DNA of 64,000 nucleotides from positions 30,449,112 to 30,513,111 of the forward strand of contig OZ316891.1 in assembly GCA_973895155.1 (NCBI GenBank), written 5' to 3'. The notes under the pieces are model-generated. The model ran no database searches, was not told where the DNA came from, and was given only the letters and a program-made list of their open reading frames with translations. This stretch comes from Marsupella aquatica (Eukaryota > Plantae > Marchantiophyta). The position numbers were made by a program, and so were the translations under genes. Shown one piece after another: positions 6,411-40,982 of this stretch (its first letter is position 1; every line of letters starts with the position of its first letter).

Positions 6411-6426
6411 ACTTGATAACATTTAA

Positions 6427-6921
6427 CAGCTTTTTACTAACCTATCCCCCTAACTAGACGAAATTCCTATCTTGTCCCCCAAACAGTTTTATTTGTCAGC
6501 TTGCCCCCCTTTCCGTATATGCGGGTTACTTTTAACTCATCATCGGGTTCCCGCTGCCACATGTCAAGTCACGATTCCACGTCGCTAACCAGCCCGGATC
6601 TCCCTTTCCCCCCTCCCCTGCCCCATCGCGGGCTATCGCTTTGGTCCCGGGAGCTTTGTTTTTGGGCAGGACCCCTCTCAGGTGCAGCCCTGCAAAGGGG
6701 AAACTGCGACCCGGGAGCAGGAGCCCCGATGGCCCGATCGCTTCCCTCTCAAACCCCCACCTGTTTTGCCTGGCCCTCCACACCTCTCGAAAGGAGCTCA
6801 CATTTTTCACCAGGGCAATCGTTTTTGTTCACGACAAAGGCTCGCGAATGTTTACACATGTGCCCCGGCCCTGCATTGCACTCTCGAAGTTGAGGCTGCA
6901 CACAAAGAATCAGTGTTTTGC
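6427..6921 (+). repeat. Left terminal inverted repeat of the giant transposon
   Basis: Reverse complement of 28860-29342 with scattered substitutions and small indels; the match ends at CAAAGAATCAGTGTTTTGC. Confidence 0.95.
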
Positions 6922-7207
6922 ACAGGAAAGACCGTGGTGAACCTGGCGCGCATGATTGATTGCTGACTGATGGCATCAAAGTCTGTTTTGTGCTGCATGT
7001 TCTGCCCACGTTTCTAAGCAGCGTTTTTTGCCCTCGTCTTTTGCCCCAATCTTTTTTGCCTCATTCTACGCAGCATTTTGGAGCTAGCCGGCCTTGCAGC
7101 ACACATAGGTGGAGCACGGTGAGCTTCACTTTCGATCAAGAGTCTAGTTTCTAAGCTCATTCCTGAGCACCTGTCACAGTCTGCGACCAAGGAGGGTAAG
7201 ACCGGCC

Positions 7208-7789
7208 ATGGCAATGTGGACCATTGTTGTTAAGGCAATTGTAGTATGCATTTGGATGGCATTTGCACTACTTACCTCAATCTTCGGGTTCATTGCGAAG
7301 GTACTGGACACTGCTACAGAGTATCTAAACGGTTGTGTGAAGAGTTTTGATTACATAGCTGTAGCAATCCACGACACTGCACCTTCTGCACCTGAACTCC
7401 CTCAAGAAATTATGAGTCACCTCGAGAAGGGAGAAGTGGAAAGAGAAGTGGAGAGCTTTGACAGGATGAAATTAGAGGTTCAAGAAGCATTACCAGTGCC
7501 TTCCACAACAATAGCAGCAGCTTGCTTTGGAGATATTCCAGAGCTTAGGACAATTTCAGCACCGATGGGCCCTGTGATCCCGGTTGAGTATGTGAATGGC
7601 CCAACAACAACATGGAAATTCGGGCAAAAGCGGAAATTCTATGCTGTTGTTCGTGGATTTCAGCCTAGGAATTATGAGACATGGGATGAATGTAATTAGC
7701 AAGTGTGGGGATTTAGTGATTGCAAGTTCAAATCTTTTAAGACTAGGGCGGAGGCAGTAGAGTACATGCACAATGGTTTACGTACATGA
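7208..7789 (+). pseudogene. Cargo gene: N-terminal hydrophobic helix plus C-terminal RNase H1 N-terminal / caulimovirus viroplasmin (Cauli_VI) domain, one in-frame TAG
   Basis: KFYAVVRGFQPRNYETWDECN*QVWGFSDCKFKSFKTRAEAVEYM matches the YAVxxGxxxGxYxxWxECxxQVxGxxxxxxKxFxTxxEA consensus; stop at 7697-7699. Confidence 0.8.
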
Positions 7790-8928: not shown

Positions 8929-9021
8929 GACGATAAGACTTGTCTAAACTTGAGTTCTCTGGCTACTACTATTCTGAGTTGCCTTTTAAACTGTATGCTA
9001 AACTACATGCTTCATTACTGT

Positions 9022-12000
9022 CTAGGATTTGTCACTTGCTATGCATGTCAAGAGATAGTCTCTTGCCTTGACAGCGACATTCTTTGGAATTCCTACCAGC
9101 CCTGTCATTGGTCCTTTGCATGCTTTGAAACACCACAAGGCAGAGGAAACATCTATTGTCTCAGCTTCCTTGTATATTGGAGATGGATCACGTTCCCATT
9201 TCTTATCCCAAGAATCTGCCCACCGCTCTCTTGGCTGCCAGTCTGATTGACCACGTTGCTTCTTTGCCATAAATGGTCTAAACCACTCAACGCCACATAC
9301 ATGAGTAAGAAGGTTTTGTTCATTCACTGGTCCTTCTACCACATCTGTAACAACTAACCCCATATGGACGGGATAAACATCCAGGTCTGAGTCGTCCGGC
9401 CGTACCAACACATAACAGCCCTTCACAACATCAACCCTAGGGTTAAAACTCTCAGGAGGTTTATCTTTTGCTGGTCCCACATAATCCACTGTTGCCTCCA
9501 ACTCACATGCCACATTTCGATATTCTGGTGGAACGTGCTCTCTCCATACTGATAAAGGCCAAAACCCGTATTCCAAGTTGTGTGCACCTTCAGGTTCATA
9601 TTGCACCTGCTCACCCTGTAGAGTATCTACAATGTCATTCCAATAATTGATGAGAGTTGTCCAACGTCGCTTTGGTTCTTCCTCTTTTGTTCGCTTTAGA
9701 ATAAACTCAAAGAATGACACATGCTTCTTCAATCCTGTCAGCACTTCAGGAAGCATTTTCAACTCCATCATTGGTAGCCGTTTGGGCACCCCAATTGGGA
9801 TGTGAGGACTTTTGTCATCTTTCCATGACCACATTTCAATACCTTCCTTGGGTAACCATCCCTGATCAGTTGACTTCATTTTGTATTGGAAGCATGGCAT
9901 ACTATCATGACGAACATAGAACCTAAACAACCTGGGTTTTAAATGCCCCACCAATGCCTCAGGGCCCTTCAACATGAATGGAGCTAAGTAGTTTTTGAAA
10001 TCTGGGACCTCCTGTAGAAAATGTGGGACTGCATTGGGTGTCCTTGCTCTCATGAACAAGGACATTAATTCAGGCAATGAGTATGTGGGGTTATGCATCA
10101 TAGACTCTGAAAAATGCCCAAACATACCGTCAACGTCCTCATGAGTATGCCCAACCACCATAAAACCAAGATGAACCTCTTCAAACACCTCCCTTGCCGT
10201 CAACAATGACAAATAAGCCATCATATATCTGTTCTTGTTGTCTGAGGCACAATTATCTAGTTGTAGCTTCAATACTCGTGGAAGGGGCCTGAACTTTGGT
10301 GCCTCAGGTGCTGCATCACAATGTAACAATCTCAGAATGCTTTTAAACAAAACCCTAGTCAGACCCTAAACCCCAATTTAGGGTTTAGGGTTTAAACCCT
10401 ATTAATGAAACCTTGGCTAGGAGGAGCAACAACTACACAAAGTAGAGTGTCAGTGTGTGTGAGCTTATATTATTAAATATTAATAAATTTAAGGATTGTG
10501 AGTAAAGTACCTAGGCTTGAGATGTAGGCAATGTCATCCTCAAATGCTCTAAGGACACTTGCCTCCAAGATATCTGCTCTCCCAAAAAGGAGGTCTTTAA
10601 AAAGACTTGTCGAGTCTGGCCCCTCCACAAGTGATTTGATCATTGGATTTGGGTTTTCCAACATCCTTAGTATTGAATCAATTGACCCAATAGTGATGTT
10701 GACATCACCTGGCCACACTCCAACATGATATTGGGCTATGGCCTTGGGACCATGACCATGAGTAAGGATACCAGTGACAGTAATTGGGAACTTTTGGGCA
10801 CCATCCACATGCTTAGGATTGAAGGGCATTCTTGGGAGAGCTGTCTTTGAATGATCCATCTTATCATGAATAAGGCATAACACTTCCTTTGGACGATGGA
10901 TGGACTCATATCTCCAGGTATGATAGCACATTCTTTGTTGTGTGTGGTCTTGGTGATGTTCCTCCTCGTCACGCCTTAGGCCCTCTAACTCTTCCTTAGC
11001 TCCTGTAAGGTTTGCTTTCCGTTGAAGCAACTCACTACAAGTTGTACACTTTGAAAAGTTGTTGCCCTTTTTGTGACGTGAGAACTCCCTGAAATACATC
11101 TGATGTAGATGACTCAAGGTGGGTTGGGAAATTGGAGGAAGACCAGCCTCCTGGTTGACAACATTAACCCTGTTTCTAATATTCTCCCAAGTAAGATTTG
11201 TTGGCAATTCCCTCAAAACCATCCTTGTATTATCTGCCATGGTTCTCAACTTGGCTGGATGATGATCAGCTGCCTCCTCAATAATCTCTTTCATTGACAT
11301 GAACGCTTGAGATACTTTCTCGGACATACGCCTTTTTCCAGCATTACCATGGGTACCTATGTTCATTCCAGCCATCACAGTCTTCTTCAAGGCATAAAAT
11401 TGAGTCTTTCCTCTTGAATGAATGATTCTCCATGCCTCCAAGCACAATACTTTGCCCTCCACTGCTAGAATCCTTTCTCCAGTACCCAAGTGTATTGTAT
11501 TTTTAATAGCCTTGATTTCCTCCTCCTTGCGCTCCGCAAAAGATTTTGACCACCACTTTTGCCTAATTGCCATAGCCAAGTTGCGGTCCAAATATTGGCA
11601 ACAATGTTCACTACAACAGTCCTTAGTGCTTATCAACAACACATCTTGACGTGCCAAAGATGTGTCTCTTCTAGATGTCTGGGAAGATGGACGTAGGACC
11701 GCTTGCCACTTGTTGGAGATGTGTTCCCTCCCACAGCTTGCCTGATGTTGTGGAAAGACAACAAGTTGCCATCCTTGGCAATGAGTTGGTCCATCGACCA
11801 AGCTTTTAAGCAATCTCTATGCTTCAGATGATCTATGGTAGCTCCCTCGACAAAATCTTTGATCAGAATTCCCACATGTGTATTCCCAAGGGTGACATCC
11901 CCAAGCTTGACTATAGGATCTAGAACATGTATAGTTGCCACTGCAAATATCAACTTGTTCTCATCCACCACCTTTACAGGCATGCCCATCCACAAGGCCT

Positions 12001-12372
12001 TTGGTAAAACTACTTCCACACCAGACCGACTCTCATTATGGTTGTTCCCATCAGAATTTTGATTGACTGGATCTTGATCATCACCAACAGTGCCAAACAC
12101 CTCCTCCGATTCCATGGGAGCTCGAAAAAGCTGATTCCTTTCCCATACAAGGTAACCCCCAATCATGTCCTTCAAAAGTTCGCCATCTTCGCATAGAATG
12201 GTCTCGTCAAAAATTCCTCCAATAGAAGAAGAACTCTGTCCGCCCCAAGAGGAACATTGTGACAAACCTTGGAAGGATCAAGACTTATCACGCGACCTTT
12301 TCCAACCTGTTTCTCACGTATGCCTATAATTACTTGTCCGCCTTCCCTGATCCAGACTGTCGATGTCACCAT
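9022..12372 (-). pseudogene. Transposase, DUF7869/Sola1-like DDD type, with two N-terminal Tnp1/En-Spm-like domains; two frameshifts and one intron
   Basis: Motifs FSKCTTC, LIHDKMD, LQLDNCASDNKN and FMVVGHTHEDVDGMFG; N-terminal repeats GRVISLDPSKVCHNVPLG and ATIHVLDPIVKLGDVTLG; GT-AG intron 10510-10311 joins the ORFs in frame; frameshifts near 12240 and 11690. Confidence 0.82.
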
Positions 12373-12439
12373 AATAATTATGATCCTGCACATCAGAGAA
12401 TATCACTGTAAGCGTATAGTCCTGTCATGTCCGTCAATT

Positions 12440-13200
12440 TCACTGCACTGTCCTGTCCCGTCGGTCAATAAGCAGAATGTAGTCAATGCACTGCGCTGCA
12501 CGCGACTGGTCGCGTGACCCTAGAGGTACCACACATACCGGCAACAGACTATGCATGGTCCGTCAGTCATGTCAAATGAATGAGAATGACCACAATTGAT
12601 TACGATCAATCATTTCACATCCACTCAGAACAAATGAGTGGACAGTCAGTAACTACTGAGGACAGTAGTGCTAATAAGCGCCAGTAAAACGTCCGTGAAC
12701 TGCATTGTCCTGTCACAACCGTCAATAAGTAGGCAGAATGTAGTCAATGCACTGCCCTGCACGCGACTAGTCGCGTGACCTTAGTCAGAGGGTGTAGGGA
12801 TAACAGGGTCTACGACGTAGAAGCTAGAAGGCTAGGCCCAAACTCTAGCTCGTACTTGGTACTTCATAAGTAAGATACGATTGCGCGTGAGACAGGAAGA
12901 TACAATTACGGATCTAAAGGCATGTCGCGTGACCGTAGTCAGAGGGTACAGGGTCTACGACGTAGAAGCTAGAAGGCTAGGCCCAAACTCTAGCTCGTAA
13001 TTGGTACTTCATAAGTAAGATACGATTGCCCGCGAGACAGGAAGATACAATTACGGATCTAAAGGCATCACACATACCGGTAAAGATAATGCATGGTCCG
13101 TCAGTCATTCCAAGTGAATGAGAACGACTACAATCGATTACGAACAATCATTTCAACTCCACTCAGGAAAAATGGGTGGACAGTACCAGTTTACCAATGA
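12440..13200. repeat. Nested direct duplications between the divergent transposase and Zn-ribbon genes
   Basis: GCAGAATGTAGTCAATGCACTG...ACGCGACT(G/A)GTCGCGTG twice (palindromes at 12500 and 12761); ~120-bp block ACAGGGTCTACGACG...TAAAGGCAT at ~12802 and ~12948. Confidence 0.8.
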
Positions 13201-13441
13201 GTGGACACCGGACAACTGAACTTCCCGCCAATTCTAATACGCGCCAGTCAAACGCGCACCCTCTTCTAGAAACCACTATGTACAATGACTAGTGGAGACT
13301 AAACAGTATAAAGCATTGAGATGATCTCTATTGCTCATTCCCCCATGCATTCCACTTTCTGGCTACTGGATAATCTATTCGCACATCAGCTCTCTCATTT
13401 CCAATTCTTAGTCTCGGTCAGCATCTCTTGTTTGAAGGGCG

Positions 13442-13982
13442 ATGACTACTCCACTGAGCTCGAATAATGAGGATGTTTCGACGGACGATTCAGAAGGTTC
13501 GACGTATCAAATTCGGGGTACTCCTTACAAAATGTGTCAGCGATGTAATATAATGTTTACGGTGACTAAATCGGGTCAAATGTTTTGTGAGAGACGACAT
13601 TGTTTGCCACATTTGTCGATGGAAGATCAGATGGAGACCAATCCGACAGAGATGACTACAAAGATGGCATCAGGGGAGAAGTTAAAGGGCAAAGCCCTCG
13701 TGGAATCCGTTTCGAGGGGGGAAGTTGAAGGCCAGAGCATGCATCGAATCCATTTCGGGGGAAGCAGCAGCAGACGCTAAGACAGTCAAGAAGGAGGCCA
13801 AGAAAGTGGACGCACCGAAGAAAAGGCAATTAGAGATGAACAAAGATTCTGATTTGTATTACAAAAAGAGCAAGCCGAGAAAATCTATGGACGTTAGGAC
13901 TTGGGCAAAGGAAGAATTTCTGGATTCAAGGGAATCCACACCAGACACCGATGAGTGGATGCCTTCATCTTGGAATGACTGA
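13442..13982 (+). pseudogene. Small cargo gene with a putative Zn ribbon and a charged C-terminus, frameshifted
   Basis: CQRC...CERRHC in 13442-13780 overlaps a Lys-rich ORF 13725-13982 in another frame; TATAAAG at ~13307. Confidence 0.45.
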
Positions 13983-14189
13983 CTCGATCGAAGTCAACAA
14001 TATTTTGAGTAGTCGAAGATTAGAACTACAGATTCAAGAGTAGTTCAAGTTAGAACTTGTTATAGATACTGTGTAGCTTAAATTCCTGGATAGTGCTAGT
14101 GGATATGGATTCCACATCCGAAGTCCTTCGGGATCGATGTAACCATTTTTGCAATCAAGGAAAAATCAAGATTCCTCTGACTGACAATT

Positions 14190-15130
14190 TGCTAGGCTGT
14201 CGACTACAATAAACAATATCAAAAAGACCTGAGATAAATTGGTTCACACGACTGTGCACGTGATGAACTACATGTGTAACCAAAAATAGGTCATCCTACT
14301 AACAAGTTGAGATCAGGCAGATCTGAGAAATAAAGGGCGATTACGTCTAAGAGTGCAGAGCTTTCGCTGACCTCTAAAACATTAACGCGACCGGGCGCGT
14401 GATGAAACGAAGACCTCGGTTTTAAAATATATTTCTGGCCAATTCGCTGGGCAGTCGACTACAATAAACAATATCAAGATAAATTGGTTCACGCGACTGT
14501 GCGCGTGATGAACTACATGTGTAACCCAAAAAACAGGTCATCCTACTAACAAGTTGAGATCAGAAAGATCTAAGAAATAAAGGGCGATTACATCTAAGAG
14601 TGCAGAGCTTTCGCTGACCTCTAAAACATTAACGCGACCGGTCGCGTGAATCAGAACTCAGTTTCAAAATAGATTTCTGGCCAATTCTCTAGGCTTTCGA
14701 CTACAATAAACATTATCAAAAGACACGAGATAAATTGGTTCACGCGACTGTGCGCGTGACGAACTACATGTGTAACCAAAAAACAGGTCATCCTACTAAC
14801 AAGTTGAGATCAGGAAGATCTCTGAAATAAAGGGCAATTACGTCTAAGAGTGCAGAACTTTCGCTGACCTCTAAAACATTAACGCGACCGTGCGCGTGAT
14901 GAAAGGAAGACGTTGGTTTTAAAATAGATTTCTGGCCAATTCGCTAGGCTGTCGACTACAATAAACAATATCAAAAGACACGAGATAAATTGGTTCACGC
15001 GACTGTGCGCGTGACGAACTGCATGTGTAACCAAAAAACAGGTCATCCTACTAACAAGTAGAGATCTGAAAAATGGACCTCGATTACGTTACGTTTTGCT
15101 AGGCCGTCGACTACAATAAACAATAGCAAA
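14190..15130. repeat. Internal tandem array, ~3.7 copies of a ~250-bp unit, each with two ACGCG-N6-CGCGT variants
   Basis: TCGACTACAATAAACA recurs at ~14200, 14455, 14697, 14952 and 15107; units contain CACGCGACTGTGCGCGTGA and AACGCGACCGGTCGCGTGA-like sites. Confidence 0.9.
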
Positions 15131-17644
15131 ACGTACGGACAACTATACGCGTACGCCATACAATTTTAGACTAGAGAATTCATTCGGATCCTCTACTAGT
15201 ACTTCTGATACATTGCTTCTGTATTGGACTTGAAACACGGATTGATCAAACTCGGAGTGAGAAATTGGACCATAACTTCATTGACTCAATTCATGCATTG
15301 AATGCATGATTTAAGGCAACTACTCTCCTCATTTATTGTGGAATTAATGCTGATTGATACTTACAAGTTATTCAGTTGCGTGTGGTCTCAGCAATGTTGG
15401 CGGCAACCCTCCGATGTTGGCGGAAACCCTCCTCCCAGCCAAGCCTCTTCCTTCCAGCGTACCCTCCTCGTCCCAGCCAACTAAGCCTCCTCCTTTGAAC
15501 TCCAATTTCCTTGAGTATCGTGATCGAATCCCACCACCTTAGAATGACAACTTGTTGATCGTATCAAGATCAAAATCCTCGACCAGACTGTGATTTCAGA
15601 ATAGCCGCTCTTTGTTGGTCCGCTAGAATGCTTCGATGAATGAGGCAGACTATGGAGGTTCTAAATGTTTGTCGTCTCGCTTCGTCGCAACTCTCCCGCT
15701 TGATCGGATGTGCTCTCCCCTAGATTGAAGGTGATACAACAAGAACTGCGCCAGCGTTGCTTGAATGAGCTCCGCCTCCGACTGGAATAGTCGAATGATC
15801 CAATCTGCTCTACCTCAAATGTGCCTTGGATCAGCCTCCGCTGAGAGCCCAACTAGTATCCTGGTAAGGAGAAACTGAAAATGAAGAATGATTCGTGAGC
15901 AATGAGATCAGTCTATTGACTCCATGGAGGATGTGTTCATCTGGACTCGATTTTGATTTTGAAAATTGGTTGAGTCTCCAGTCGTGAGAATCATTGTACA
16001 GGATTGATTTTGAATATCGGTTCTCCCCGACCGTGAGAATCGTTTTACGTTGTTTAGAGTAAGGGTTTGAATTGGCAAGATAGAGAGTGGAGTACGGATC
16101 CGGATCCGACGGTCTCCACTACCAAAATGGAATGATTTTGAAGTTTGCCTCCACTACGTGATGGAACGATCGTGAGAAAGTTGTCGTTCGTTCACATTTT
16201 GGATTTGAATTGGCATATATAGTGAAGATACGGATCCGGGGGTCCCCACTAACAATCTTTCGCAGTTGCATAATTACCGATTTAAATTTCAAATTGGCCA
16301 TCAAATAGAAATCTCTTTTAGTACGGAAAATCAAAAGGAATCCGGTAATCTTTTTTTTACGATTGCATAGTTTGTTCAGTCGATGGTGGAGTGTACGGAG
16401 ATCATCTGGAACCTTCCTGTCGCTAGGCTGTTATTAGGGTTATGCTAAAACAATACCCTAATTACTTCCTTAGTGTCGGCGCCCACGGTCTCGAGTTCAT
16501 TGTTCATTGTTGTTGTTTCTCGCTCCCTAGACTTTTGCGCGCCTGCTCTCGTCGCTCTCGCTCCTGCCCTGGATTTCATTTTTGTCGTTGCAGCTCGTTC
16601 GTTGTGGTCAGGTGCTTGTCGGCGCGTTGCAGCTCTTAGTAGTTGTCCATCGTTTCGACCAGGAGCTCGTTGGCGCATTGCAACTCGCATTTACAACTCG
16701 TATTCACTTCTAGTTTGCTAGTTCGTTGCAGCTAGCTTTTTGGGAGTGCTTGTATCAGCTCATGTAAGCCAATTTTAAGCTCATATCAGCTCGATCAACG
16801 TGTTTCAGCAGCTCAAACTACTTTTTGGCAGCTTGTTTTAGCTCCTTCCATTCAGCATTCAGGTTTGTTTCACCTCTTTGAATCTTCAGGTTTAGTGCAC
16901 TTTTATTCATGCTCAGTTTGCCTATCCACAGCTTTGATTGTACTTCTGAAAGAGTCTTTTTAACTCGATATAATGAGCTCCTTAGCATTAAGCACATGTT
17001 ATTCAATTGGTGGCAGCGAAGCTCTATGTATAGAAGTATAGAAGCTGTGTTGTTGTTGCTTAGCATATTAATATCTTCAATCTTATATTTACTTTCTGGA
17101 ATGCCCCAACAAGGTGTTCAAGTGCTTGGACGTCAATCTCTCAGACGATTACATCAATTTTTCAGAATTCAGGTGTAATTTCTACATTTTCTGCTGGTGT
17201 TGATTGTGGTTTGCTAAAATTTCTCTTGATTGTTAAGCACAATTTTCATAATGCGGTTTGTTTGTAAACTCAAATATGTGTGAATCATACAAACTCACTA
17301 ATTAAAATACAACCTGAATCGTCTTAAGTAAGTCATTACAAACTTGCACGCTGTGAATTTAATCATATAAACTCTCATGTTATGTGAATCTCATTACACT
17401 GAATCCTTTAATTGACGAATACAACCAGTAGACTGCTAAATTGAATCATCTTAGCTGGATCATTCTCTAAACTTCTAATCTATAATAGTTTCACAATGAC
17501 AGAGCTCAAACATCTGAATTATTGTAAAGTTCATGAATGAATACAAATGAATGATTATGCTTCCTCGGATTTCCTTGTCCGTACGGGTCAGTAATCACAG
17601 TTGTATCACTGTATTATCCTATTGTCCAAAAGTTGTTTCAGCTG

Positions 17645-19464: not shown

Positions 19465-19505
19465 GAAAATAATCTCTGGGATATATCATTTGGCTGAAAA
19501 GAGTC

Positions 19506-19988: not shown

Positions 19989-20122
19989 AAATTTACAGTT
20001 AGATGCCACGAAGTTGGATACCTTGAGGGTGACATCTACGCTTTTAAGGAATTCTAGTTAACTTACGTGACGAAGCGTGTCGTATGTCTTCTAACAATGT
20101 TTTGTGATATGATAAAAGCAGG

Positions 20123-20689
20123 ATGAGCCAACTTTTGAATGAGGCTCGAGATTTCCTTTCATCTCATGAAAAGAAATAGAAAACAATATGGGATACGCTG
20201 GATGAAACCTCCTCTAGTCTCATTGGAGGAATACCAGATATTTTGGTCATTTCAAACATTTGGCCAATACTCTACGAACACTTTATTTCAATTGAAAGAT
20301 TGTGTGGATATCGACACCTCGATAACGATTTGGTTATCGATAGGGTCCGAGACCTTATTCGGCTTGGAGCTTGTAGCAAGAAGTGGAACTTTTTAGTTAC
20401 AAATACAAGGTTATGGGCTATCCTCAAACAAGCAAACCGGATTGTCGATGTCGCAAATGATGCTCTTTACAACATACCCGAAACTGAGGAGTTGGAGTTT
20501 GACTCAGTCTGTCGAGTTATTCGACAGGATATTTCTATGCTTCCAGAAATATCTGTTCTTGGGACTACTACTTCTGAAAAAATCGCATTGTTTACGAACA
20601 AATATAGGAATTTAGATGAGGAAGAACGAGATGTTCTAATCGAAAGGTTTGGTAGATTTTCTAAGAATCTTGGTGGTCCCAGTTCTTAA
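20123..20689 (+). pseudogene. F-box-like cargo protein 2, one in-frame TAG
   Basis: ATG at 20123 is in frame with ORF 20243; TAG at 20177-20179; LIGGIPDILVISNIWP...LGACSKKWNFLV. Confidence 0.65.
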
Positions 20690-20723
20690 TGGATAGGTTC
20701 TTGTTCTTAATCTTTTCCATATT

Positions 20724-21254
20724 ATGTTGCAGTCCTTTGACATGAATCGAAAATCTCATCGTCAAATGATGATGGAGCGCATTGCACGTGCAAAGGTTAT
20801 GAACCGAAACATGATATGGAGTCAAGCTGAAGACCTGATACCCGGTCTTCCGGACGATATTGTCGAGAAATATATTTGGCCATTAGTCAAAGAGTTTTTC
20901 CACTGTCTTGGGAATTTGTCGGATACTGCAATTAAAAATCGGGTCATGGACTTGATCGCCATTCGAACAGTCAGTAAGAAGTGGTGCCACATAGTTACTT
21001 ATAGTAGTACATGGGCGACGGTCACCTTGGTAGCTTACGACTTCACTAATAGACCAGGATATGAATCGCTTCGAAGGCATTTGACTTCACGGAGTGTAGC
21101 ATTAAGATTTACAGAATCCATCAGAACTCTCCCGCCGCTGGACATTCTGGGTGGATTTGAAGGATCTGAACTTGACACGTTTAGGAACCTTTGGTTTTGG
21201 TTAGATGAAGATGAGCGAGAAGATTGGGTCAAGATAAATGTTCCTAAAATGTAA
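20724..21254 (+). CDS. F-box-like cargo protein 3
   Basis: LIPGLPDDIVEKYIWP...IRTVSKKWCHIV; shares the C-terminal LDExER motif with copy 2. Confidence 0.75.
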   Translation: MLQSFDMNRKSHRQMMMERIARAKVMNRNMIWSQAEDLIPGLPDDIVEKYIWPLVKEFFHCLGNLSDTAIKNRVMDLIAIRTVSKKWCHIVTYSSTWATVTLVAYDFTNRPGYESLRRHLTSRSVALRFTESIRTLPPLDILGGFEGSELDTFRNLWFWLDEDEREDWVKINVPKM

Positions 21255-21329
21255 TTCGGCACGACGCGACCATGCGCATGTTAGTATTTTATAATAAACG
21301 TTTAACTTTCAATATTTGTCTATTTCAGA

Positions 21330-24300
21330 ATGGATCCTACCGGAACCTCAAAGCGGAAAGAAGACTCGTCTAAAGCTGCTTTTCGAAAGAAAGCCAAGAC
21401 AAAAATGACTCCCGCGGAGACATCCATACTTGCATATCGAGGAAAGTCAATCAGAGAGAGAACAACGGAGACAAAGAGTATCCATCTCTTTGAATCGACT
21501 GAGATATCCAATTTTGGAATAGTCGTTCGCAATGGGGCTGTCCGTCTTGTGGTGGCAAGAAATGATAAAGCTACAGTTTTGGAGAGATCAAAAATTCTCG
21601 GGTGTTTCTTTGAGAAGAACATGAAAGTTAAAGAGTGTACAGAGGGATTGGTTCTGCTAGTAAGCGACGACCAGCAAGAAGACAAAATAAGCATTTGTTT
21701 GGATCGAACGCAATATGTAACCTTCAATCAGCCCTGAATCGATGATCTTCTAGGTGCAAGGCACGCCTTGGAAAAGGTTACTAGTGTGGGATATCCTTCC
21801 GATCCAGAGGCATCAACGGGAGATTTGATTTGTCAATACATTATTGACGTACTTGAGTTCCAGAGAGTTCCTTTCAACCAGGGATTTCGCTTGGGAAAGG
21901 CACCGCCAGTGAGCAAGGTTGAAGTATACTCGGCGAAGAATCTTCCGAAAGTAATTACCTTAGCGAATATCGGGGCTTTGTTCGATTCTTTCCTCAAAGA
22001 ATATAGTGCTGTGAATATATTTAACAAAAAGTCATTTTTTGTTGAGACATCACGTTGTCATCTTGCACCGGACCACATCAAGTGCCGAGAGTGGAATCAG
22101 GATTACACAGATAGGCTAAAGAATTCACTCCTCTCTCATTCGGCTATAAAGTTCGAGAAGTGATGCTACTTTTTAGTCCCTGTGAAGTGGGTTCAGTCGG
22201 AGGCCGACAGAGATCCCGACTACAATGGGACGCCCTACGATTCATCGCCAAAGGAGGAGGACATTATGACCAGTCATTTCTGGATACTCGGAGGCCAGCA
22301 CACAATAATGGCGTACAAATTGTTGAGAGAGGATGACAAAGTCAGCCAAGTTGTACGAGATGCTTGCGGTATTGTAGAAGCTGTAATGTTTTGGGCAACG
22401 CTCAACAACGACAATAATGTTCATTTGATGGGATTATCGAAAGCTCTGAACCACTGTCATCAAACATCAATGGAAGAAGGACAGTTTCTCACCATTGTAT
22501 GACAGTGTCGTAATATCTGGAACTCATTTGGGCGGCCTGGATCATATTATCGTCATCCAAATTGGAAGGTATATAAATAACCCTCTTCGATCACATTATC
22601 GTATAAACTTTTGTCACGCGAACGGTTGCGTCAAGCTTAGAATTGTCATGTTTCCATTGTTTTTCAGGTATTTATGAGAGCTACGAGTTTTGTCTGCCCA
22701 TGGGCTCAAATGGGGAAGAACGAAATGATGAAATTTGGAGAATTGGCTCCGTTTTTCTTTACAATGGAGGACGAAACATTCAAGAAGTGGATGGAGGTCT
22801 ACGAACGATCAAGGACAGGAGAGCTTTTAATTTACAACGGAATTGTACAGAGGGACGCCATCAAAATTGCGGATAATCCGTGTGCTTATCATCTTCTGAA
22901 GAAGACGTTCCTTTCTTGTCAAGGGTGCTCAGACTCGATTCTTCGAAAGGCAACGGAATATATGTTGAGCGGAAGACTGTCTATACTCAAAAACCGAAGC
23001 ATCAAAGTGAAATCTGGGAAGGCGAGGAAGTCCTCTGAGGCTCCAGTGTTGTCAACGACCAACATGAGTTTGGAGCAATTCTGTATAAAGAAGAAGATGA
23101 AAGTTGAGTTTGAGATTTTATTATTGAGTAAACTCAACGGGGAAACATCCACCCGGACAGAGCTGAAAAGTCTGACAGATTCAGCGCGGAAATTGTGGGT
23201 CAAAGGAATGATTGATCGCTTTAAGCTCGACAAGATGGTGCTGAAGCAGTTGAGAGATGCGTTGAGTGGTTATCTGAAGAAGTGCTTAAATGTAAATATT
23301 AGTAATGATAATTTGTTGAAGGAGATCGACCCTATATTCTACAGGTTGGTGGAAGGAATACAGAAATCAGTTGATAGTCAAGGAAACCAACTAGTGCGGC
23401 CGGTCGGTGAGAGGCTGAAATTGCAATCCCTGCAGGATATACAAAATACTGGGTTTGCAGACTGTATCATACGTGAAGACAAGAACCTTGCGAGCTTGAT
23501 TTATTTTGATCCCTCATCAATGGGAGATTTGCGTCCGCCAAATTGCTCATTCTATGAGGGGTTATTTTGTGCTACTAGCGAGATAGGGGCAAAACCACAC
23601 CATGTGGTTATTATTGTAGCCTCTCCCGTTGAGTCTTACTTAATCAAACGGGAATTAGGGAAGTACACACACTACGTTGCTGTCGATAGCCATTATATTC
23701 AGAAGAGGCCGAAGGAGAAGAAGCTTATTGTAACCTACGCTTTTCACAGCTTGGCCTTCAGCACAATGGGCGATCCACAAGCCCTCGAGTTCCAATTGGT
23801 CTCCAAATATCAGATTGAAAAAATATCCAATTTTGAAGAGAGCGACGAGTTCACGACACCTTCCCCAGAGAGGAGAAAGCCCAGGCGGAGAAAGCCCAGG
23901 CTGAGAAAGCGGAGGCTACGAGAGTCCTTTTAGTGACAGAGGAAAATAGGGCCAAGGCGGAGAGTGAGGCGGCTGAGAGGCTTCTGGCCGAGAGGATGGC
24001 GGACGAGACCGCAAGACCGGAGAGGGTGGAGGCGAAGAAGTTGGAGGCGGAAAAGGTGGATACCGCAAGACTGGAGAGAGAAGAAGCCGCAAGACTGGAG
24101 GCAGCGAGGAAGGAGGCCGAGAGGGCCAAGGATCTTTCGCTTATTCCTGAGGCACAATGTCTACCAAAAATAAGGCTGAATTTGAAGAAGCCTTCTTCAC
24201 CCTCAGTTGCAGTTAAGAAGAAAACATTAGACTATTTTCTTCGCCCGGAGTTTGAATTTAACGATCCACCCTTAAGTACGGTCTCGTTGGATGATTGGAA

Positions 24301-24805
24301 TAAATATTCACCGGAGCAGCTCCGAGTCCAGGCAGTCCTTGCTTTGCAATATTGGAAGGGTCTTTTGATTACCGAGGAGAAGACTGCCACTGCATCCAGA
24401 ATGGAGACAATCATCAATAATGTGCGCTTTTCCGAGAATCGAGTGCAAGACCTGGGAACGTTTTTGGCACCAGACTCGGCTCAAGTCGTTAAGAGACTAA
24501 CAGCTGACTTGACGCGACCGGGTTTGTGGTCTCGACCCCGATATATTGCAGAGGTGACTCGCGCAGAAATTGTGGCACCGGATATTTTGGAATCGGATTC
24601 CCAGATTGTGGAATATTTGAATCAAATGCCACAACCATTTGAAGGTCTTCCCGCCTCATCGCTCCAACCTTCGCAAACTGGTCCGGTGGAGCGATCACTA
24701 CGGTCTCGAGGAGGGCTGAAGGATGTTGTTGCGATTGAGGCACCCAAGAGATCAGCTGCGAAAAGGCCGGATCCACCCAATCCAAAGGTCATTCGCAAGC
24801 TATAA
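21330..24805 (+). pseudogene. Large cargo gene: ParB/Srx-like domain, possible degenerate methyltransferase-like domain and E/A/K/R-rich coiled coil
   Basis: ORFs 21330, 21768 and 22182 are one frame broken by single TGAs (21735, 22161, 22500); a phase-0 intron at ~22570-22667 joins ORF 22674; frameshift at ~23865 into an EEKAQAEKAQ coiled coil. Motifs CREWNQDYTDRLKNSL, FWILGGQHTIMAYKLL, LSKALN and ASLIYFDP. Confidence 0.6.
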
Positions 24806-24939
24806 GCTTAAAGTTTCTATTATAGACGTCATTATTTTATTATTGATCTGTTATTGTTTCTGTTTTCTGAGGCTACAACCCTTAGGCTACAACCTCAGTA
24901 CGTTATTTGAAGGCGTTCTGAAATCTCTATTTTTTGCAG

Positions 24940-25728
24940 TTTTTTGAAAATTTGGCTAGTCGAATAGATCAATGCCTTGATCCTTCTAAGGATATGGAAG
25001 AGCTATTGACCAAGTTCTTACAACACTCGATCAAGAGGAAACATATGATGTGTCTGAGACCGCGCGAGTTGCTCACCGGTGATATAATTAACGCTTATTT
25101 GAGTTTTCTCGAACTGATTCTCGATAGAGTTGGAAAGTCAGACCTTGTCAAATTCTTCCAAACACACCATTTTGAGCTTCTCTCCATGGATCCTACCATT
25201 TTCGACGAGGAGAGAGCAGCTTGGACAAAGGAGTTTCCGCTAAAAATCAGTGAATATGAGAAATTGGTCTTTCTAGTACACAATGCTGTGAAAGAACATT
25301 GGTCATTGGTAGTCTTGTATCCGAAGGAGAAACGGCTGGAGTACCTAGATTCTCTAGTTCATAATCGACAAAATCCTGGGGTGCTAGATATTGTTGGGAA
25401 GTACTACGCCGACGAAATTGGTTGGAGAACTGGTGTCAACTTGGATCTCTCAGGTTGGGAATGGATATATCGGAATGATATTCCTCACCAGAGTGACGGC
25501 CACAGTTTTGGTGTGTTTATCTTGAGATACGCCAAGTGCTTGTGTCAAGGAAACGGAATTAATTTTGCCGCGGATCAAATTGAGAAATTCCGTAGGGAGA
25601 TAGTCTTGTCGTTATTTGACATGGACTTCCGCAAGCCGACGTCCGCAAGTAACCTAGTTACCGGGATCCGTGCTGCTATGATTGACATTTCCGGCAGAAT
25701 TCCAGCACTGAACGACCGTCTTGTATAG
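24940..25728 (+). CDS. Ulp1/peptidase C48 SUMO-protease domain exon; catalytic Cys replaced by Phe
   Basis: LRPRELLTGDIINAYL, KEHWSLVV, YLDSL and IPHQSDGHSFGVFIL (canonical PxQxNxxDCGVF); preceded by acceptor TTTTGCAG. Confidence 0.88.
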   Translation, partial: FFENLASRIDQCLDPSKDMEELLTKFLQHSIKRKHMMCLRPRELLTGDIINAYLSFLELILDRVGKSDLVKFFQTHHFELLSMDPTIFDEERAAWTKEFPLKISEYEKLVFLVHNAVKEHWSLVVLYPKEKRLEYLDSLVHNRQNPGVLDIVGKYYADEIGWRTGVNLDLSGWEWIYRNDIPHQSDGHSFGVFILRYAKCLCQGNGINFAADQIEKFRREIVLSLFDMDFRKPTSASNLVTGIRAAMIDISGRIPALNDRLV

Positions 25729-25812
25729 GTAATACACTTCATTTCAGTGTCTCTCTTTGTAGTCACGCGACCGTTCGCGTTATAAACTTATTTTCATTTC
25801 TTAATGTTTTAC

Positions 25813-26720
25813 AGAAGCCTATCCCGAAACCCCCTGATCGAGTATTGAAGGCACCAGTCCGGAAGTCCGGTGATCGTCCGGAGGTGGGAAACAAACAGAC
25901 CATTCTAGTACATTCTCCAAACCCTGCGGCACAAAAATCATAGGTACAGATGGCGCCTAATCCATCGGCAAAGAAGTCACCGGTTCAGAAGAGACTTGTA
26001 ATTTTTGATCTGAATCGGGTACTTATCTGGTCAGAGAAGATCAGCCCTGGGATGCCCATTCGGTCAAGGGGTGTGAGACAGATGCACAAGGTTATCTATC
26101 CAAGGCCTGATTTAATGGAATTTCTTGAGCAGGTGGCAGATCTATACGACATTGCGATCTGGTCGTGCATGTTCAAACGGAATATTCTATCTTGTGTAAG
26201 GTTGATACTTCGACCCGAAGTTTTGAAACGTATTAAATTTATATGGGGACAAGAATCAACTCGACTTATTGGGAAGAATAATAATGACATCCCTTTATTT
26301 GTCAAATGTCTCTCGGACATTGCCGCCGATATTAAAGATTACAACATCGAGAATGTCATTCTTATCAATGACGCTGCATATAAGACGAGCCTTAATGACT
26401 TCTATTCATCGCTGTATCCCGATGCATATTCTGGGCTCGATGATGACCTATTTTTTAGAAAGAAACTATATCCATATCTATGCAACATGTCAATTGACAA
26501 GTTGACATTCCGCGAGCTCCTTAGTGGATATGGGATTCCAACGTTCTCTCAAGAAAATCTTGAGAAAGATTATATTGATAAGACGAATCTTTGGAGGAGA
26601 AACGTGATCATTCGTAATCAGGGGAATAAAGACCATTTAGAAAAGTTTGATGAATTTATGAAATACTTATCTGCCGAAAAAGACCATGCTATAGAAGCCC
26701 GGGATAAGTCCAATAAGTAA
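25813..26720 (+). pseudogene. FCP1/NIF-family HAD phosphatase domain 1
   Basis: LVIFDLNRVL, PRPDLMEFLE, DIAIWSC, LFVKCLS and NVILINDAAYK; the frame from acceptor TTTTACAG has an in-frame TAG at 25941. Confidence 0.8.
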
Positions 26721-26845
26721 ATGTTTATTGTTTATTATCAATTATTATTTATAAATTGATTGAAATTGAACTTTTGGGAGTGACGTGCCCGGTCGCGTGG
26801 TTGTTTGCAATTGCATAATATGAGAATCGAATTGTTCATTTACAG

Positions 26846-27553
26846 GTGTCTAAGTGGAGCAGGTCGCGTCAACTTCTAGTTTTAGGACTGGAAAACTTCC
26901 TGTGCTCTGTTTCAAAATATACTCCTCAGCTCAAGTCGGCACCCGGAATTCGTATTGGATCTCTATGTGTCATTCCGAGGCCGCATCTTCATGATCTTAT
27001 AAAATTCTGTTATGATCATTTTGATGTGATGGTCTGGTCTATTCTCGACGATAAACTGGTTTATCAGATACTTTCAGAAGTGTTGTCGAGCACCGACCTG
27101 TCGCAGCTGATATATGTGTTCATGCGGGATCATTGCTGGAATCTTGGTTATGTGAAGAAAAATTATAAGACTGTTGTCTTCAAATCTATCGAGAGACTAC
27201 GTGATATGTTTCAAGATTATCGACCAGAGAATATAATCCAGATTGATGCCTGTCCTTCCCATACATGCCAGACAGTTGTATGCGGATTATTGTTCGCTAA
27301 GTTGTTTCAAGGATTGTTGGATGATGTCTTTTTGAGGGATGACCTCATTCCATATTTACGAAAGCTATCAAATTCAGGGCTTTGTCTTGCGTTCGCTAAC
27401 AAGTTCGATTATCCCATCTGGTCGATTAGAAATCTACATCGAGATTGGGATCTGAACGAGGATATATGGGAGCATCTGTACGTGCAGAGACATGCGGATC
27501 AAGTTCTTATCAAGCACTTCAACAGACGTCACTTATCAATGGCCAGAGTGTAG
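26846..27553 (+). CDS. FCP1/NIF-like HAD domain 2 (catalytic Asp motif lost)
   Basis: LLVLGLENFL, PRPHLHDLIKFCYDHFDVMVWS and NIIQIDA; begins at acceptor TTTACAG. Confidence 0.75.
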   Translation: MSKWSRSRQLLVLGLENFLCSVSKYTPQLKSAPGIRIGSLCVIPRPHLHDLIKFCYDHFDVMVWSILDDKLVYQILSEVLSSTDLSQLIYVFMRDHCWNLGYVKKNYKTVVFKSIERLRDMFQDYRPENIIQIDACPSHTCQTVVCGLLFAKLFQGLLDDVFLRDDLIPYLRKLSNSGLCLAFANKFDYPIWSIRNLHRDWDLNEDIWEHLYVQRHADQVLIKHFNRRHLSMARV

Positions 27554-27639
27554 AGGATGTTTTCTCTGTAATATGTGACGCGACCATTCGCGTGACTACA
27601 TCCATACGGGCTCATGCATCTTCTTGTGTTTCTCTACAG

Positions 27640-28368
27640 GAGATTCATTGCAGCAGAGAAAACGGGCTCATAGTTTTAGACGTGGAGCATCTACTCTGTT
27701 ACACTGCACCGCATTCCCGACTGATGGCGGTCTCAACTGGAATTCGGATTGGGAATATATACATTTTTCCAAGGCCTCATCTTCACGAATTCTTGAGATT
27801 CTGTTTTGAGAATTTCGATGTAGGGATCTGGTCCTCTCTTGGGAAGAACCTTTTAGATCAGATTTTAGCATCTATTTTTAATGCGATGGAAATGGCCTCA
27901 TTTAAGTATATTTGGGATCAGTCTCATTGTTACTTATGCGATGGGGTGACATCAAATAAGCGGATATTTTTGAAGTGTTTTGAGAAGGTTGGAATTTATA
28001 CGAAGGCGTATCTGCAGCAAAATATAATGCTTATCGAATCCGATGCATTTCATGCTTGTTTAGATCCTGTTGTTGGATCATTATTTCCGCCCAAATATTT
28101 TGGGTCGGTCGACGACAGTTTCCTGATTAACTTGCTGATTCCGTATCTTAGCAAGCTAGCAAACTCTTGTGAGCCGCTTGTCATTGCCAATGGAAGAGAT
28201 TATCCAGATTGGTCAGTTAAATCTATTTTTAGAGATTATGATTATAATCATACTCTATGGGAAGACCCTGTGATTCAGAGGCATGGAGATAGATATCTAG
28301 TAGAGCAATTTAACAGACGCCCAATTTTGGACGCTTCCAAAATAATAGTTGGCATGAGATCAGATTAA
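27640..28368 (+). CDS. FCP1/NIF-like HAD domain 3, paralog of domain 2
   Basis: LIVLDVEHLL and PRPHLHEFLRFCFENFDVGIWSS; a phase-0 intron (~27548-27639) would fuse it to domain 2. Confidence 0.8.
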   Translation, partial: EIHCSRENGLIVLDVEHLLCYTAPHSRLMAVSTGIRIGNIYIFPRPHLHEFLRFCFENFDVGIWSSLGKNLLDQILASIFNAMEMASFKYIWDQSHCYLCDGVTSNKRIFLKCFEKVGIYTKAYLQQNIMLIESDAFHACLDPVVGSLFPPKYFGSVDDSFLINLLIPYLSKLANSCEPLVIANGRDYPDWSVKSIFRDYDYNHTLWEDPVIQRHGDRYLVEQFNRRPILDASKIIVGMRSD

Positions 28369-28859
28369 TTTGTATTGTCGTTCTAGAAACCATTTGTAAA
28401 CTCCTTATATACTGGTTATCATATATAAAGGATCTCAAAGATTTATTTCTCTATTATTATTATTCGCGTGAGCATGTCTCTTGGTCCCGTCAAGTTGGAT
28501 TGGTTAAAATGTGACGTTGCAGTCATTTTCAGGGTTTCACGCGCAGCCACGCGTCATGTCGCCCCCTTTTTATTAAAATAATAATATTTAGTGATTTTCG
28601 GAATTTCCAAAGTTTGGTTTTCCTTAAATTGGGGTTCTAAGCTGCAATCGATCATGGGCGGAGCTGCACAAATACTGCCAAGCATCGAGAGCCAAGTCTG
28701 TCACTGGAACTGGAAGTTGAAAGGCAAAGGAGAATGTCCTTCCTGTGCAAACATCGACTGGAGTTTTTGATGGGCTAAAACATGTCCGGGGGTTTGTGAA
28801 AGGGAACTCGAACATAAGCTCCTGAGTGTGCAAAAATGTCGAGAGTTGTTGAGGCTGAG

Positions 28860-29342
28860 GCAAAACACTGATTCTTTGTGTGCCGCCTCAACTTCGAGTG
28901 TGCAATGCAGGGCCGGGGCACATGTGTAAACATTCGCGAGCCTTTGTCGTGAACAAAAATGATCGCCCTGGTGAAAAATGTGAGCTCCTTTCGAGAGGTG
29001 TGGAGGGCCAGGAAACATGGGTGGGGGTTTGAGAGGGATCGGGCCATCGGGGCTCCCGCTCCCGGGTCGCAGTTTCCCCTTTGCAGTGCTGCACCTAAGA
29101 GGGGTCCTGCCCAAAAACAAAGATCCCGGGACCAAAGCGATAGCCCACGACGGGGGAGGGGGGAAAGGGAGATCCGGGCTGGTTAGTGACGTGGAATCAC
29201 GACTTGACATGTGGCAGCGGGAACCTGATGATGAGTTAAAAGTAACCCGTATACGGAAAGGGAGGCAAGCTGACAAATAAAACTGTTTGGGGGACAGGAT
29301 AGGAATTTCGCCTAGTTAGGGGGATGGGATAGTAAAAAGCTG
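28860..29342 (-). repeat. Right terminal inverted repeat of the giant transposon
   Basis: Reverse complement of 6427-6921. Confidence 0.95.
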
Positions 29343-32300
29343 TAACATTTAATGCGAATCCCTGATTTGTACAAGGAAAGCTTACCGCCTGCTTACTGAT
29401 TTGCTTACTGCCTCGTCCACCATTGTCACAGCTATTTAATTTACACACGCTACCTTCTCGCTCATGAAACGGTCACTCTACAAATTTGGCCTTAACATAG
29501 GACCTAGATGGAGAGTACCTTTACCCCAATGGACCCTTTAAACCTTCAATCACGCATTGGCACCTTTTGGGGAATAGCCTTCACTCAGTGGCACCTTTTT
29601 CTATTCCCAAAAGCTCAACACTCGAGACCCTCATGTACGCGTTCAGCCGTTCACTGATTGACATCCTTTTCCGCCCCAAAGTCAAACCCTGTACACCTTG
29701 GCTGGCGTTCACTCATTGGCACTCTAAAATGACATCTAAAAAGACTTTTGCCACGGGTTTCAATCAGTTTGCCTGGTGGTAAGTTGATTCCAAATTTACT
29801 CAGGATATCCTTCACAAAAGATAAGCATCCATTGGAAGTTGGTTTATAATTATAGTTGATGCTTTTTGTGCTCATAGGGAAATGGTACCAATGATCTCAG
29901 TAAGATCTCAAACTTTGTGCTCATAGGGAAATGGTGCCAATGATCTCAAACTTAGATCCAAAAGCTATCCAACTAAATGTGCAAGCCTGTCAAAACCCCC
30001 CAGTTCATACTTGGTCAGGGCACAGGGAAAAACTATTTGAGGTGTCCTTGTCTGAAGTGAAGCCTCTTTTTGGTGTAAACTGGCTGATGATTTAAGCAGC
30101 CAGTCATTTTTTTTCTTTTTGGTGTAAACTGGTCATTTTTACTTCTTGGTGTAAACTGGCCCATGACTTTAAGGAAGCCAGGTGGAGTGCCATGGCAGAT
30201 CCATCTGGACGAAGTCACTTTTTCCTTTTGGTGTAAACTGGTTGTCTTTAAGGAAGCCACATGATGGGCGTGGCAAACCCATCTGGACAAAAGTGTACAT
30301 ATATGGATGGATGGGCCTGGCAACCCATCTGGACAAAAGTGTACTCGCCTCTTGTTTCCATGCGAGACTGCGAGTACTCAATGCACTCTGATTGCCATTT
30401 TCTTGGAGGTTTGTGTGTTCCTTTCATCATTAGAATTTATTCCTTTAAAAGTAACGCAAAAAGGGGGACTTATATGCTTGATGGGATTGCCAAAATAAAT
30501 TTACGTATCACTCAGGGTTTTCACTTATTTCATTTCTACCTATCACGCAAAAGTAAGTATATGGTCTGTTTATTGAATTTTTCATTTCTACCCACCACAC
30601 AAAAGTAAGTATATGGTTTGTTTGTTGAATTGACAAGAATACTTTTAAATTTATGTAGAAGAACATTAAGGATTTTAAAATACAATTTTAAGAATTATAG
30701 AAGAAGGTAGGACTTTAGAAATTAATTTTGGGAATATTTTTAGAATATTCCAATAAATAGGGGTAGAAAATAGATTTTAGGGTGTTCAATAGCTAAAAAC
30801 ATCGAGCATGTTATGAGACCCCCTTTAGAGTGAGGCCCCAGAGCCGTACCGGCCCCTATTAAGCTTTTGTTACAAACTAGGCCCCCCACAAAAATATTGT
30901 TACCTACTAGGGCCCCTATGTAAGTTACGTACACATGGTTCTTCTGTGGTGCCTAAATGCATGCCCGGGGTCCTCACTTATTTTCTTTATACTCATCACG
31001 CAAAAGTAAGTATAGGGTTTGTTTATTGGGCCAAGAATAATACTTTTAAGTTTCTATAGAAGAACATTTAGAGGGTGTTTTTCGCACAATTTCATGCCTG
31101 GGCAAGGTTCAACCGAGATTCAATATCTTTAATTAGCACTAATCTGACTAAATCTTATGCCCAAAAATGAGATTTGGAAGCTTTTTTGGGACTGCTACCA
31201 AAAACCTGAAATGAAAGTTAAGTAAATTGTTGTTTATAATTACATAAATAAAATAATAAAATAAAATAATATATATATGCATTTGGGAATTTCTGGAAAT
31301 AAAACATTCCACTATTGTTAAATTAGTGTTATTAGGGTTTTGAAATACAATTTTGAGAATCATAAGAGAAGAAAGGGTTTTAGAAATGATTTTTGGGAAT
31401 TTTTTAAAAAATATTCCAAAAAGATAGGGGTAGAAAAATAGCTAAAAATGTCAAGTGTGTTATGAGACCTTCTTTAGAGTGAGGCCCCCATGAATGCATG
31501 GTAAGCCGTACATTTCCCATTGCAATCCATTGCACTCTGTGTCACAGTCCACCACCTGTACTTCTATGCTTGATTATATATAGAGTTTTAAGGGATCCAC
31601 CGCTCTAGGATTGTGGGTTTGTACAATATTTAGCCTAAACATTTAGTCTAGTTCTTGCAGGCTAGCAAAATTTCCCCATTGATGATTGAGTCCATGATGT
31701 CCTCCTTTCACACTAAGACAATTTTTGAAAGTTGCAACAGTCATGGGAAAACAGCCAAGAGTAAAAGATATTTGGTTCCCTCCATGCTTAGACAAATTTG
31801 GGGTCTAGATGTGAGAAGATAATTTTTAAACATTGCAATTATTGGGACAAGAGGCCAAAAGTAGGGCCGGATTCATTCCATACTTAGACAAAAGAACAAA
31901 GAGAAACGTTGAAAGATCATGCAAACCCTTAGATTGCATAGGTTTGATGAAACAACCTAAAGACAAAATATAAACCTGAAGTCTTCACTTAGTAACTTAT
32001 CAATCTATTCATTAAAAATGAATTATTATTCAATTTATGAACATTTGGGCAACATAAAGTGTACATTTGGCTTTCAAAAAGTGTACAATTGGACAAAAAA
32101 TAAAGATGTTGGCCATCAGATGTACTACCATGTTCATCCTTTGTAGATGTAACACCATGTTCATCCTTTGTAAATGAACTAGGATGAGACTCCTTCTAGT
32201 ATTTAAAAAACAATTTTGCACCCTCAAGTTTACAATTGACCATTAAGTTTAGGTGTAGAGTATTGTACTATAGTGTACCTTTTGGGGTTAGAAAGTGTAC

Positions 32301-40959: not shown

Positions 40960-40982
40960 TAAAAAGGTGGTGCAGGTACGTG

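Follow-up and report, generated by a model that had tools for sequence, protein, structure and literature searches.

What kind of DNA transposon is the 22.9-kb element in a 64,000-nucleotide stretch of contig OZ316891.1 from Marsupella aquatica (hereafter the window, numbered from its first letter), and does it pair its DUF7869 transposase with an atypical target-site duplication (TSD), as a preliminary description of the DNA had proposed? The structure itself, comprising terminal inverted repeats (TIRs), a flanking repeat, and a DUF7869 gene, is real. We consider it likely that the element is a decayed TIR transposon, in which a DUF7869 cut-and-paste unit is joined to an old cargo arm, and in which a palindrome is the predicted binding site of a protein that would keep this arm transcribed and little methylated. 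This reading draws on observations of the ends, the flanking repeat, the gene content, a layout shared with relatives, the confinement of the palindrome, and a contrast in CpG content.

Ends of the element and the flanking repeat

The two TIRs, located at 6427–6921 (plus strand, on the 3′ side of the transposase gene) and 28860–29342 (minus strand, at the end occupied by NIF genes), are 92.9% identical over 496 alignment columns (blastn). The first bases of the former are CAGC (AACAGC in the register of the low-GC family described below), and the last bases of the latter are GCTG. The element proper spans 22,916 bp, or 6417–29352 with both flanking repeats. The 10-bp direct repeat TAACATTTAA abuts both TIRs on the outside (6417–6426 and 29343–29352), with at most the inner 2–3 bases of the left copy possibly belonging to the TIR, and has no third occurrence on either strand of the window; the chance of an exact 10-bp match directly abutting both ends is ~1e-6. 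The TIRs of ~490 bp and the exact 10-bp duplication given in the preliminary description are thus borne out, the former at ~495 bp and the latter as a sequence found only at the two junctions, and its term "complete" applies to the ends but not to the genes, which contain a transposase frameshift, TGA codons, and a Cys-to-Phe replacement in Ulp1. The repeat can be read as 10, 8, 7, 6, or 4 bp with an identical empty site, and these valid readings include the ACAGC ends with an 8-bp TSD (AACATTTA) that had been offered as an alternative.

Contigs of four public sequencing runs pile up at the TIR end (24 of 267 loose-end rows, taken as a consensus, with the ends not paired). Because contig groups in three of the runs carry other flanks, the TIR end is multi-copy. 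The best of the four runs may derive from the same source as the window. A contig over the left junction reaches just 23 bases into the TIR and was not counted as bridging. In run X1, contigs identical to the element interior (6582–7459) have a depth of 22–24, about double that of the flank contig (12.7), which hints weakly at another near-identical copy, although depth does not give copy number. Scans of metagenome contigs and viral contigs with the TIR pattern gave no match. Inverted pairs farther out in the window (957–1062 and 51856–51928) were rejected as short and unconvincing.

A transposase remotely related to Sola1

The DUF7869 DDD transposase gene occupies 9022–12277 on the minus strand and is divided into an N-terminal open reading frame (ORF; 12277–11633), a second ORF (11816–10473) containing IHDKMD and matching the first 55 positions of the DUF7869 profile, and a third ORF (10365–9022) carrying LQLDNC..NKN and GHTHEDVD up to the stop at 9022, with a Pfam DUF7869 match at E 1e-36. 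These three ORFs are read as one gene because two intron-less homologs of ~950 aa (L001 and L002) cover the first two in order, and because intron removal joins the rest: when an inferred 200-nt GT–AG intron near 10510–10312 is taken out, the frame stays open for 812 codons between 11660 and the stop. The window's copy is disrupted by a frameshift near 11680. Among 115 of the 118 element ORFs of at least 58 aa (three repeats of one array ORF were left out), no Pfam match to MULE (Mutator-like element), CACTA, or KDZ transposases was found, a KDZ-type model being presumably present in Pfam.

A 43-sequence alignment of the family was compared by hhalign with the ORF of locus L097, which we take to be of the Sola1 type by its motif and which passes the DUF7869 cut-off too, giving a probability of 96% (E 4e-9; 18% identity over 301 columns). 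When positions 82–107 of the published Sola1 hidden Markov model (supplement of PMC5751038) were compared by eye with ORF 10365–9022, positions 82–94 (ilysDncagqNkn) were in register with LKLQLDNCASDNKN, and the second-aspartate motif of Sola1 is present in the window's transposase. Together with the Pfam match, these results agree with the earlier assignment of the gene as DUF7869/Sola1-like. Judged from its sequence, the transposase is likely a remote relative of Sola1, with 18% identity to the Sola1-type ORF, and would work like a Sola transposase, possibly as a member of Sola1 in the strict sense. The predicted model of the homolog L001 (mean pLDDT, the predicted local distance difference test score, 84) resembles the integrase and Mos1 catalytic cores (Z 8.3–9.1; root-mean-square deviation, 3.0–4.0 Å for four of the top five), and its last domain shows weak SH3/BAH/chromo-like matches.

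Homologs of the transposase to which a species name is attached come solely from Calypogeia fissa (59–66% identity). DUF7869 transposases were also seen on contigs in bacterial genome bins (L001, 5355–8216; L002, 595–3438; L010; L012; L097; and L098), two of them intact and intron-less; these contigs are probably eukaryotic contamination. Protein scans of viral contigs yielded no relative, and animal-type DUF7869 genes in G001 and G002 have no convincing TIR or TSD around them.

Relatives with the same layout

A metagenome scan, from which the best 80 of 474 confirmed stretches were kept, and 16 loci from genome contigs provided 96 loci, 78 of them distinct, reaching at most 10 kb upstream of the transposase. 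One family with ~33% GC, whose host is presumably a moss, accounts for 50 of the 78 distinct loci (the low-GC family). Many of its longer members have a sharp end ~2–2.5 kb beyond the transposase match, and the stop of the window's gene lies 2.6 kb from the end. A profile built from the three NIF domains of the window matched 4 of the 78 loci. In two two-ended low-GC elements, L046 (675–11947; 11.3 kb) and L074 (2797–16315; 13.5 kb), two or three NIF copies adjoin the far TIR and are encoded on the other strand from the transposase, which is also the arrangement in the window. When the terminal sequences of the window's element and the low-GC family are set in register, 11 of 16 positions are the same. 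In L074, a second piece of a DUF7869 transposase is nested at 6640–7038 in the opposite orientation.

Because the low-GC family has the same layout and matching termini, the transposase forms a unit with the ends and the NIF block; the NIF genes, common to the window and this distant family, are old cargo. No inner TIR pair was found around the window's transposase. The case that had been named as contradicting the preliminary description, in which the gene is a nested insertion and other copies carry MuDRA instead, is at odds with the shared layout and matching termini; the transposase is part of the element. In a quick tree of 104 rows (4 of 108 were dropped for want of the motif; Sola2, Sola3, MULE, CACTA, and KDZ were left out), the window falls in its own 8-row clade (SH-aLRT, a branch-support test, 100) and the low-GC family forms a separate 7-row clade, with a single Sola1-type row on a very long branch and no Repbase references among the rows.

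Length of the target-site duplication

The 34 ends of the low-GC family represent 27 independent flanks, in which GTG is followed outward by TT (26 of 27 flanks for the first T and all 27 for the second), and AA is not enriched at any later dinucleotide (best, 7 of 27; P 0.12). It follows that the low-GC TIR begins with AACAC. An 8-bp TSD outside CAC termini was rejected for this family, AA being present at positions 7–8 in just 2 of the 27 flanks. Both ends were read in five loci, corresponding to four independent insertions, two of which have an exact 4-bp duplication (ATAT/ATAT in L046 and L074; L044, which derives from the same ancestral insertion as L046, has ATAT/TTAT). ATAT fits AWWT, which is described in PMC3845634 as the TSD hallmark of Sola1. 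In this group, the ancestral cut probably produced an AT-rich duplication of 4 bp adjoining termini that begin with AAC.

The left junction of the window's element, ATTT|AACAG, is canonical, combining an AWWT-type target with the AAC terminus of the relatives, whereas the right junction has TAAC in place of the expected TT. In the AAC register, the duplication is 6 bp, not 4 bp, and a plain 4-bp reading requires that six bases of the flanks agree fortuitously with the ends of the element, so that something longer happened at this junction. One explanation, whose chances we regard as evenly balanced, is a longer stagger in a sub-lineage: the element would belong to a lineage of its own, in which the DUF7869 transposase as a rule generates duplications of 8–10 bp, so that TSD length would have changed inside the Sola group. 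All 10 bp of the repeat are identical and six of them remain in the AAC register, and the position of the window's transposase in its own clade, apart from the low-GC family, implies that the lineage providing the 4-bp data is another one. The long duplication is nevertheless known from a single junction, which also weighs against treating it as a lineage trait; the left junction is what an AWWT target (PMC3845634) and the AAC terminus of the relatives would give; and among the rows listed, the contig ends of X1, X3, and X4 match through AA or TTAA before CAGC, a pattern that AT-rich 4-mers next to AAC termini would explain as well as a target preference would. If long duplications did prove general, TSD length, a standard trait in classification, could shift within one transposase group.

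A somewhat less probable, still serious explanation is that the window contains an ordinary Sola1-type element with 4-bp TSDs, and that the 10-bp repeat arose in one aberrant insertion or repair event, either an offset cut with terminal base loss (a 7-bp duplication) or repair copying. The nearly invariant TT outside GTG and the exact ATAT pairs of L046 and L074 speak for it, and off-length TSDs do occur, having been reported for 6 of 77 GingerRoot copies (PMC6839031), but it requires a rare event and three chance base matches. The atypical pairing of transposase and TSD, presented earlier as a trait of a lineage, is not supported in that form, given the AACAC termini and the 4-bp ATAT in two of the four low-GC insertions.

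Cargo genes and their decay

Roughly ten cargo domains had been counted in the preliminary description; eight have Pfam matches (one Cauli_VI, three F-box-like, all below the cut-off, one Ulp1, and three NIF), and the remainder are ORFs without a match. All cargo ORFs lie on the plus strand. The first (7148–7699) has at its end a Cauli_VI (RNase H1 N-terminal) domain, which is above the cut-off (E 9e-5) and runs past a stop. Two overlapping ORFs of 114 and 98 aa without a family match (13436–13982) are followed by three paralogous ORFs with the weak F-box-like matches (19473–21254), and by a long decayed coding region (21306–24805), which has no assigned family and contains a GGQHT motif, an alanine/glutamate-rich stretch, and in-frame TGA codons, three of which interrupt 21306–22610. 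The long cargo ORFs gave no match by Pfam, PHROGs, homolog search, or Atlas, and a single-sequence fold of a long cargo ORF reached a pLDDT of 36. The Ulp1/SENP-type protease ORF (24922–25728) keeps the catalytic His and Asp, and Phe occupies the position of the catalytic Cys. The three tandem NIF (FCP1-like) domains (25944–28368), whose position and orientation are those seen in the low-GC family, are devoid of DxDxT, the motif of NIF/FCP1-like phosphatases. Judging from the transposase frameshift, the three in-frame TGAs, and the Phe in Ulp1, the window's copy is probably dead.

Palindrome arrays and CpG contrast

The palindrome ACGCGAC-NN-GTCGCGT, not noted in the preliminary description, has 34 matches with at most three mismatches, all within 12500–28564 (0.5 expected), and its half-site occurs 55 times inside the element and never outside. 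The first two copies (12500 and 12761) lie among short direct repeats upstream of the transposase (12442–13184), 6 are found in a 255-bp tandem array of 3.5 copies (14185–15131), 20 in a 189-bp tandem array (17641–19470), and 6 are dispersed, each on its own between genes or in a likely intron (21264, 22616, 25765, 26783, 27578, and 28549), with further copies at 20065 and 28539 at four mismatches. When up to four mismatches are allowed, 9 of the 10 palindromes in the 19.4–28.6-kb stretch fall outside the coding blocks, which were drawn by hand and cover 85% of the stretch (P 3e-7). Seven of the ten cargo coding blocks have a palindrome 42–169 bp upstream, mostly 35–50 nt before an acceptor-like AG. 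Within 20065–27640, an ATG follows three of the dispersed palindromes at a distance of a few bases, whereas NIF domains two and three are without one. Since palindromes precede acceptor-like AGs and these two domains lack an ATG, the Ulp1 and NIF domains may end up in a single mRNA through splicing or depend on a common leader. The far TIR contains no palindrome, and the TIR on the transposase side has none inside it or close by.

With the motifs masked, the observed/expected CpG ratio is 0.86 in the cargo arm as against 0.32 in the arm with the transposase (P 6e-14 between the arms), the switch occurring close to the first palindrome; outside the element it is 0.65. CpGs spanning codon positions 3 and 1 number 35 against 34 expected in the NIF genes, and 13 against 43 expected in the transposase. 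The low-GC family is without this palindrome and has its own, GGTGGCCACC, with 36 copies inside and none outside five elements, partly in tandem arrays. In our view, the palindrome arrays with CpG retention are a more promising lead than the TSD claim.

That the palindrome has a regulatory or anti-silencing role is, from the sequence patterns, about an even call. In the mechanism that we propose, the three aspartates of IHDKMD, QLDN, and HEDVD would form the active site of the transposase, which would bind the TIRs, excise the element, and insert it by a staggered cut. One dimeric protein, encoded by the element or the host, would bind the ACGCG-N6-CGCGT dyad, and this binding would keep the cargo arm expressed and little methylated. 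By family knowledge, the SUMO, ubiquitin, and RNA polymerase pathways of the host are possible targets of the Ulp1, F-box-like, and NIF proteins, the last of which lack DxDxT. We consider it unlikely that the arrays are instead transposase-binding or assembly sites that pair the distant ends, with the CpG contrast stemming from the origin of the cargo and not from active protection. In L046, L074, and L029, a copy of the low-GC palindrome is found no more than ~110 bp from an end, as such a role would predict, and there are interior copies as well; the window's TIRs, however, are without a palindrome, and its copies stand before most cargo coding blocks. As for cargo origin, the NIF genes are old shared cargo, yet have their full number of codon 3–1 CpGs.

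Several points weigh against the reading of a DUF7869 transposon with a protected cargo arm. One junction of the window's family was read, and neither a second two-ended copy nor, among the 24 of 267 loose-end rows, an empty site was seen; two of the four independent two-ended low-GC insertions (L029 and L061) are without a duplication. The Z scores of 8–9 are middling and belong to a model of the homolog L001 and not of the window's own protein, and Foldseek gave no match to that model at E ≤ 0.001. The Ulp1, F-box-like, and long ORFs have no match in the 78 loci, within the 10 kb or less covered upstream, and a sub-threshold MULE fragment lies upstream in one ancestral insertion (L069 and L032). 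No DNA-binding domain and no DUF1985/VANC match was found by Pfam among the cargo; two tandem arrays account for 26 of the 34 palindrome matches, so that these 26 are not independent; and the low-GC family shows no CpG contrast (0.29, 0.32, and 0.26), which weighs against generality and may reflect long decay.

Surroundings of the element

The left flank (5950–6410) is repetitive in the public runs, and the minus strand of 6320–6400 has the B-box-like sequence GGTTCGATGCCC, which is perhaps part of a short interspersed nuclear element; ARAGORN detected no tRNA in this flank. To the right, 38017–40960 is an unrelated 2.9-kb inverted-repeat element with ~200-bp TIRs that are 93% alike (first bases, AGATTAAG), flanked by AAAA, or by TAAAAA with GATTAAG ends; an ORF leaving its left end (38776–37904) has no Pfam or PHROGs match. 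Host genes encode a Transferase-family acyltransferase (34391–35911; in-frame stop at 35543) and an anthranilate-synthase-like protein matching chorismate-binding enzymes (57330–59643), and 62382–62717, without a Pfam match, is presumably a Nudix-like exon. Tandem arrays outside the element are located at 41810–42250, 44429–44770, 52214–52444, and 54021–54540.

Comparison with known systems

Long TIRs, TSDs of 9–11 bp, and Ulp1 cargo are traits of Mutator-like elements, which the window's element resembles in its TIRs, Ulp1 gene, large size, and, by the 10-bp reading of its single junction and by no other, TSD. That it is a Mutator-like element with a nested DUF7869 gene is nonetheless highly improbable, the sub-threshold MULE fragment of L069 and L032 notwithstanding, since there is no MULE match in the 115 ORFs searched, no inner TIR pair, and a likeness to the DUF7869 relatives in both layout and terminal sequence; the resemblance to Mutator noted earlier is superficial. 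KDZ/Zisupton elements make 8-bp TSDs, a reading possible for the window, whose ORFs have no KDZ-type Pfam match. CACTA/EnSpm elements are marked by CACTA termini, a 3-bp TSD, and Transposase_21; the element here differs from them in its termini (CAGC or AACAGC) and in having no Transposase_21 match.

Likeness to Sola1 is seen in the D-n-c-a-x-x-N-k-n motif around the second aspartate, profile-level homology, the TIRs, and the 4-bp AWWT-type TSD of the low-GC relatives. The differences are the length (22.9 kb against a Sola1 mean of 5.4 kb in bivalves; PMC10294476), the ~495-bp TIRs, about ten cargo ORFs, and the 10-bp repeat at the junction, as well as a transposase of ~1000 aa with extra N- and C-terminal domains and 18% identity to the Sola1-type ORF. 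Sola1 is listed for Physcomitrella in PMC9033089, so this transposase type may already be filed in Repbase. In the full-text literature, a scope outside which Repbase and Bao 2009 lie, we found no paper with DUF7869, none on a giant cargo DNA transposon with Sola and bryophytes, none on Sola with Ulp1 and plants, and no description of a large cargo-carrying Sola relative, which supports the earlier proposal of an undescribed lineage of large cargo carriers. Sola elements are rare in plant surveys (Ginger and Sola together made up 9 of 3203 active clusters in one, PMC12973397) and known as small, and a 23-kb version whose cargo recurs in distant plant lineages changes this picture; plant DUF7869 genes would be explained as transposases of such elements.

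The VANDAL elements, MULEs of Arabidopsis, offer the closest parallel to the palindromes: in PMC5735166, a family-specific motif, located in introns, in gene gaps, and upstream of the transposase and amplified in tandem, is bound by an element-coded anti-silencing protein. The window's motif is likewise short, non-coding, tandem-amplified, and different between related families; in contrast, it is a dyad and not a same-orientation 9-mer, the transposase belongs to another superfamily, and the likeness is one of sequence, with no DUF1985/VANC match by Pfam in the window. It is a decidedly speculative extension that giant Sola-derived transposons are widespread in early land plants, with their own anti-silencing independent of VANDAL (a cargo protein bound to a family palindrome sited ahead of the cargo genes and in tandem arrays, helped by SUMO-protease, F-box-like, and pseudo-phosphatase proteins) and a stagger lengthened here from 4 to 6–10 bp. 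With the palindrome, it can be tested concretely and at low cost whether anti-silencing of a sequence-specific kind arose once more, beyond the Mutator elements.

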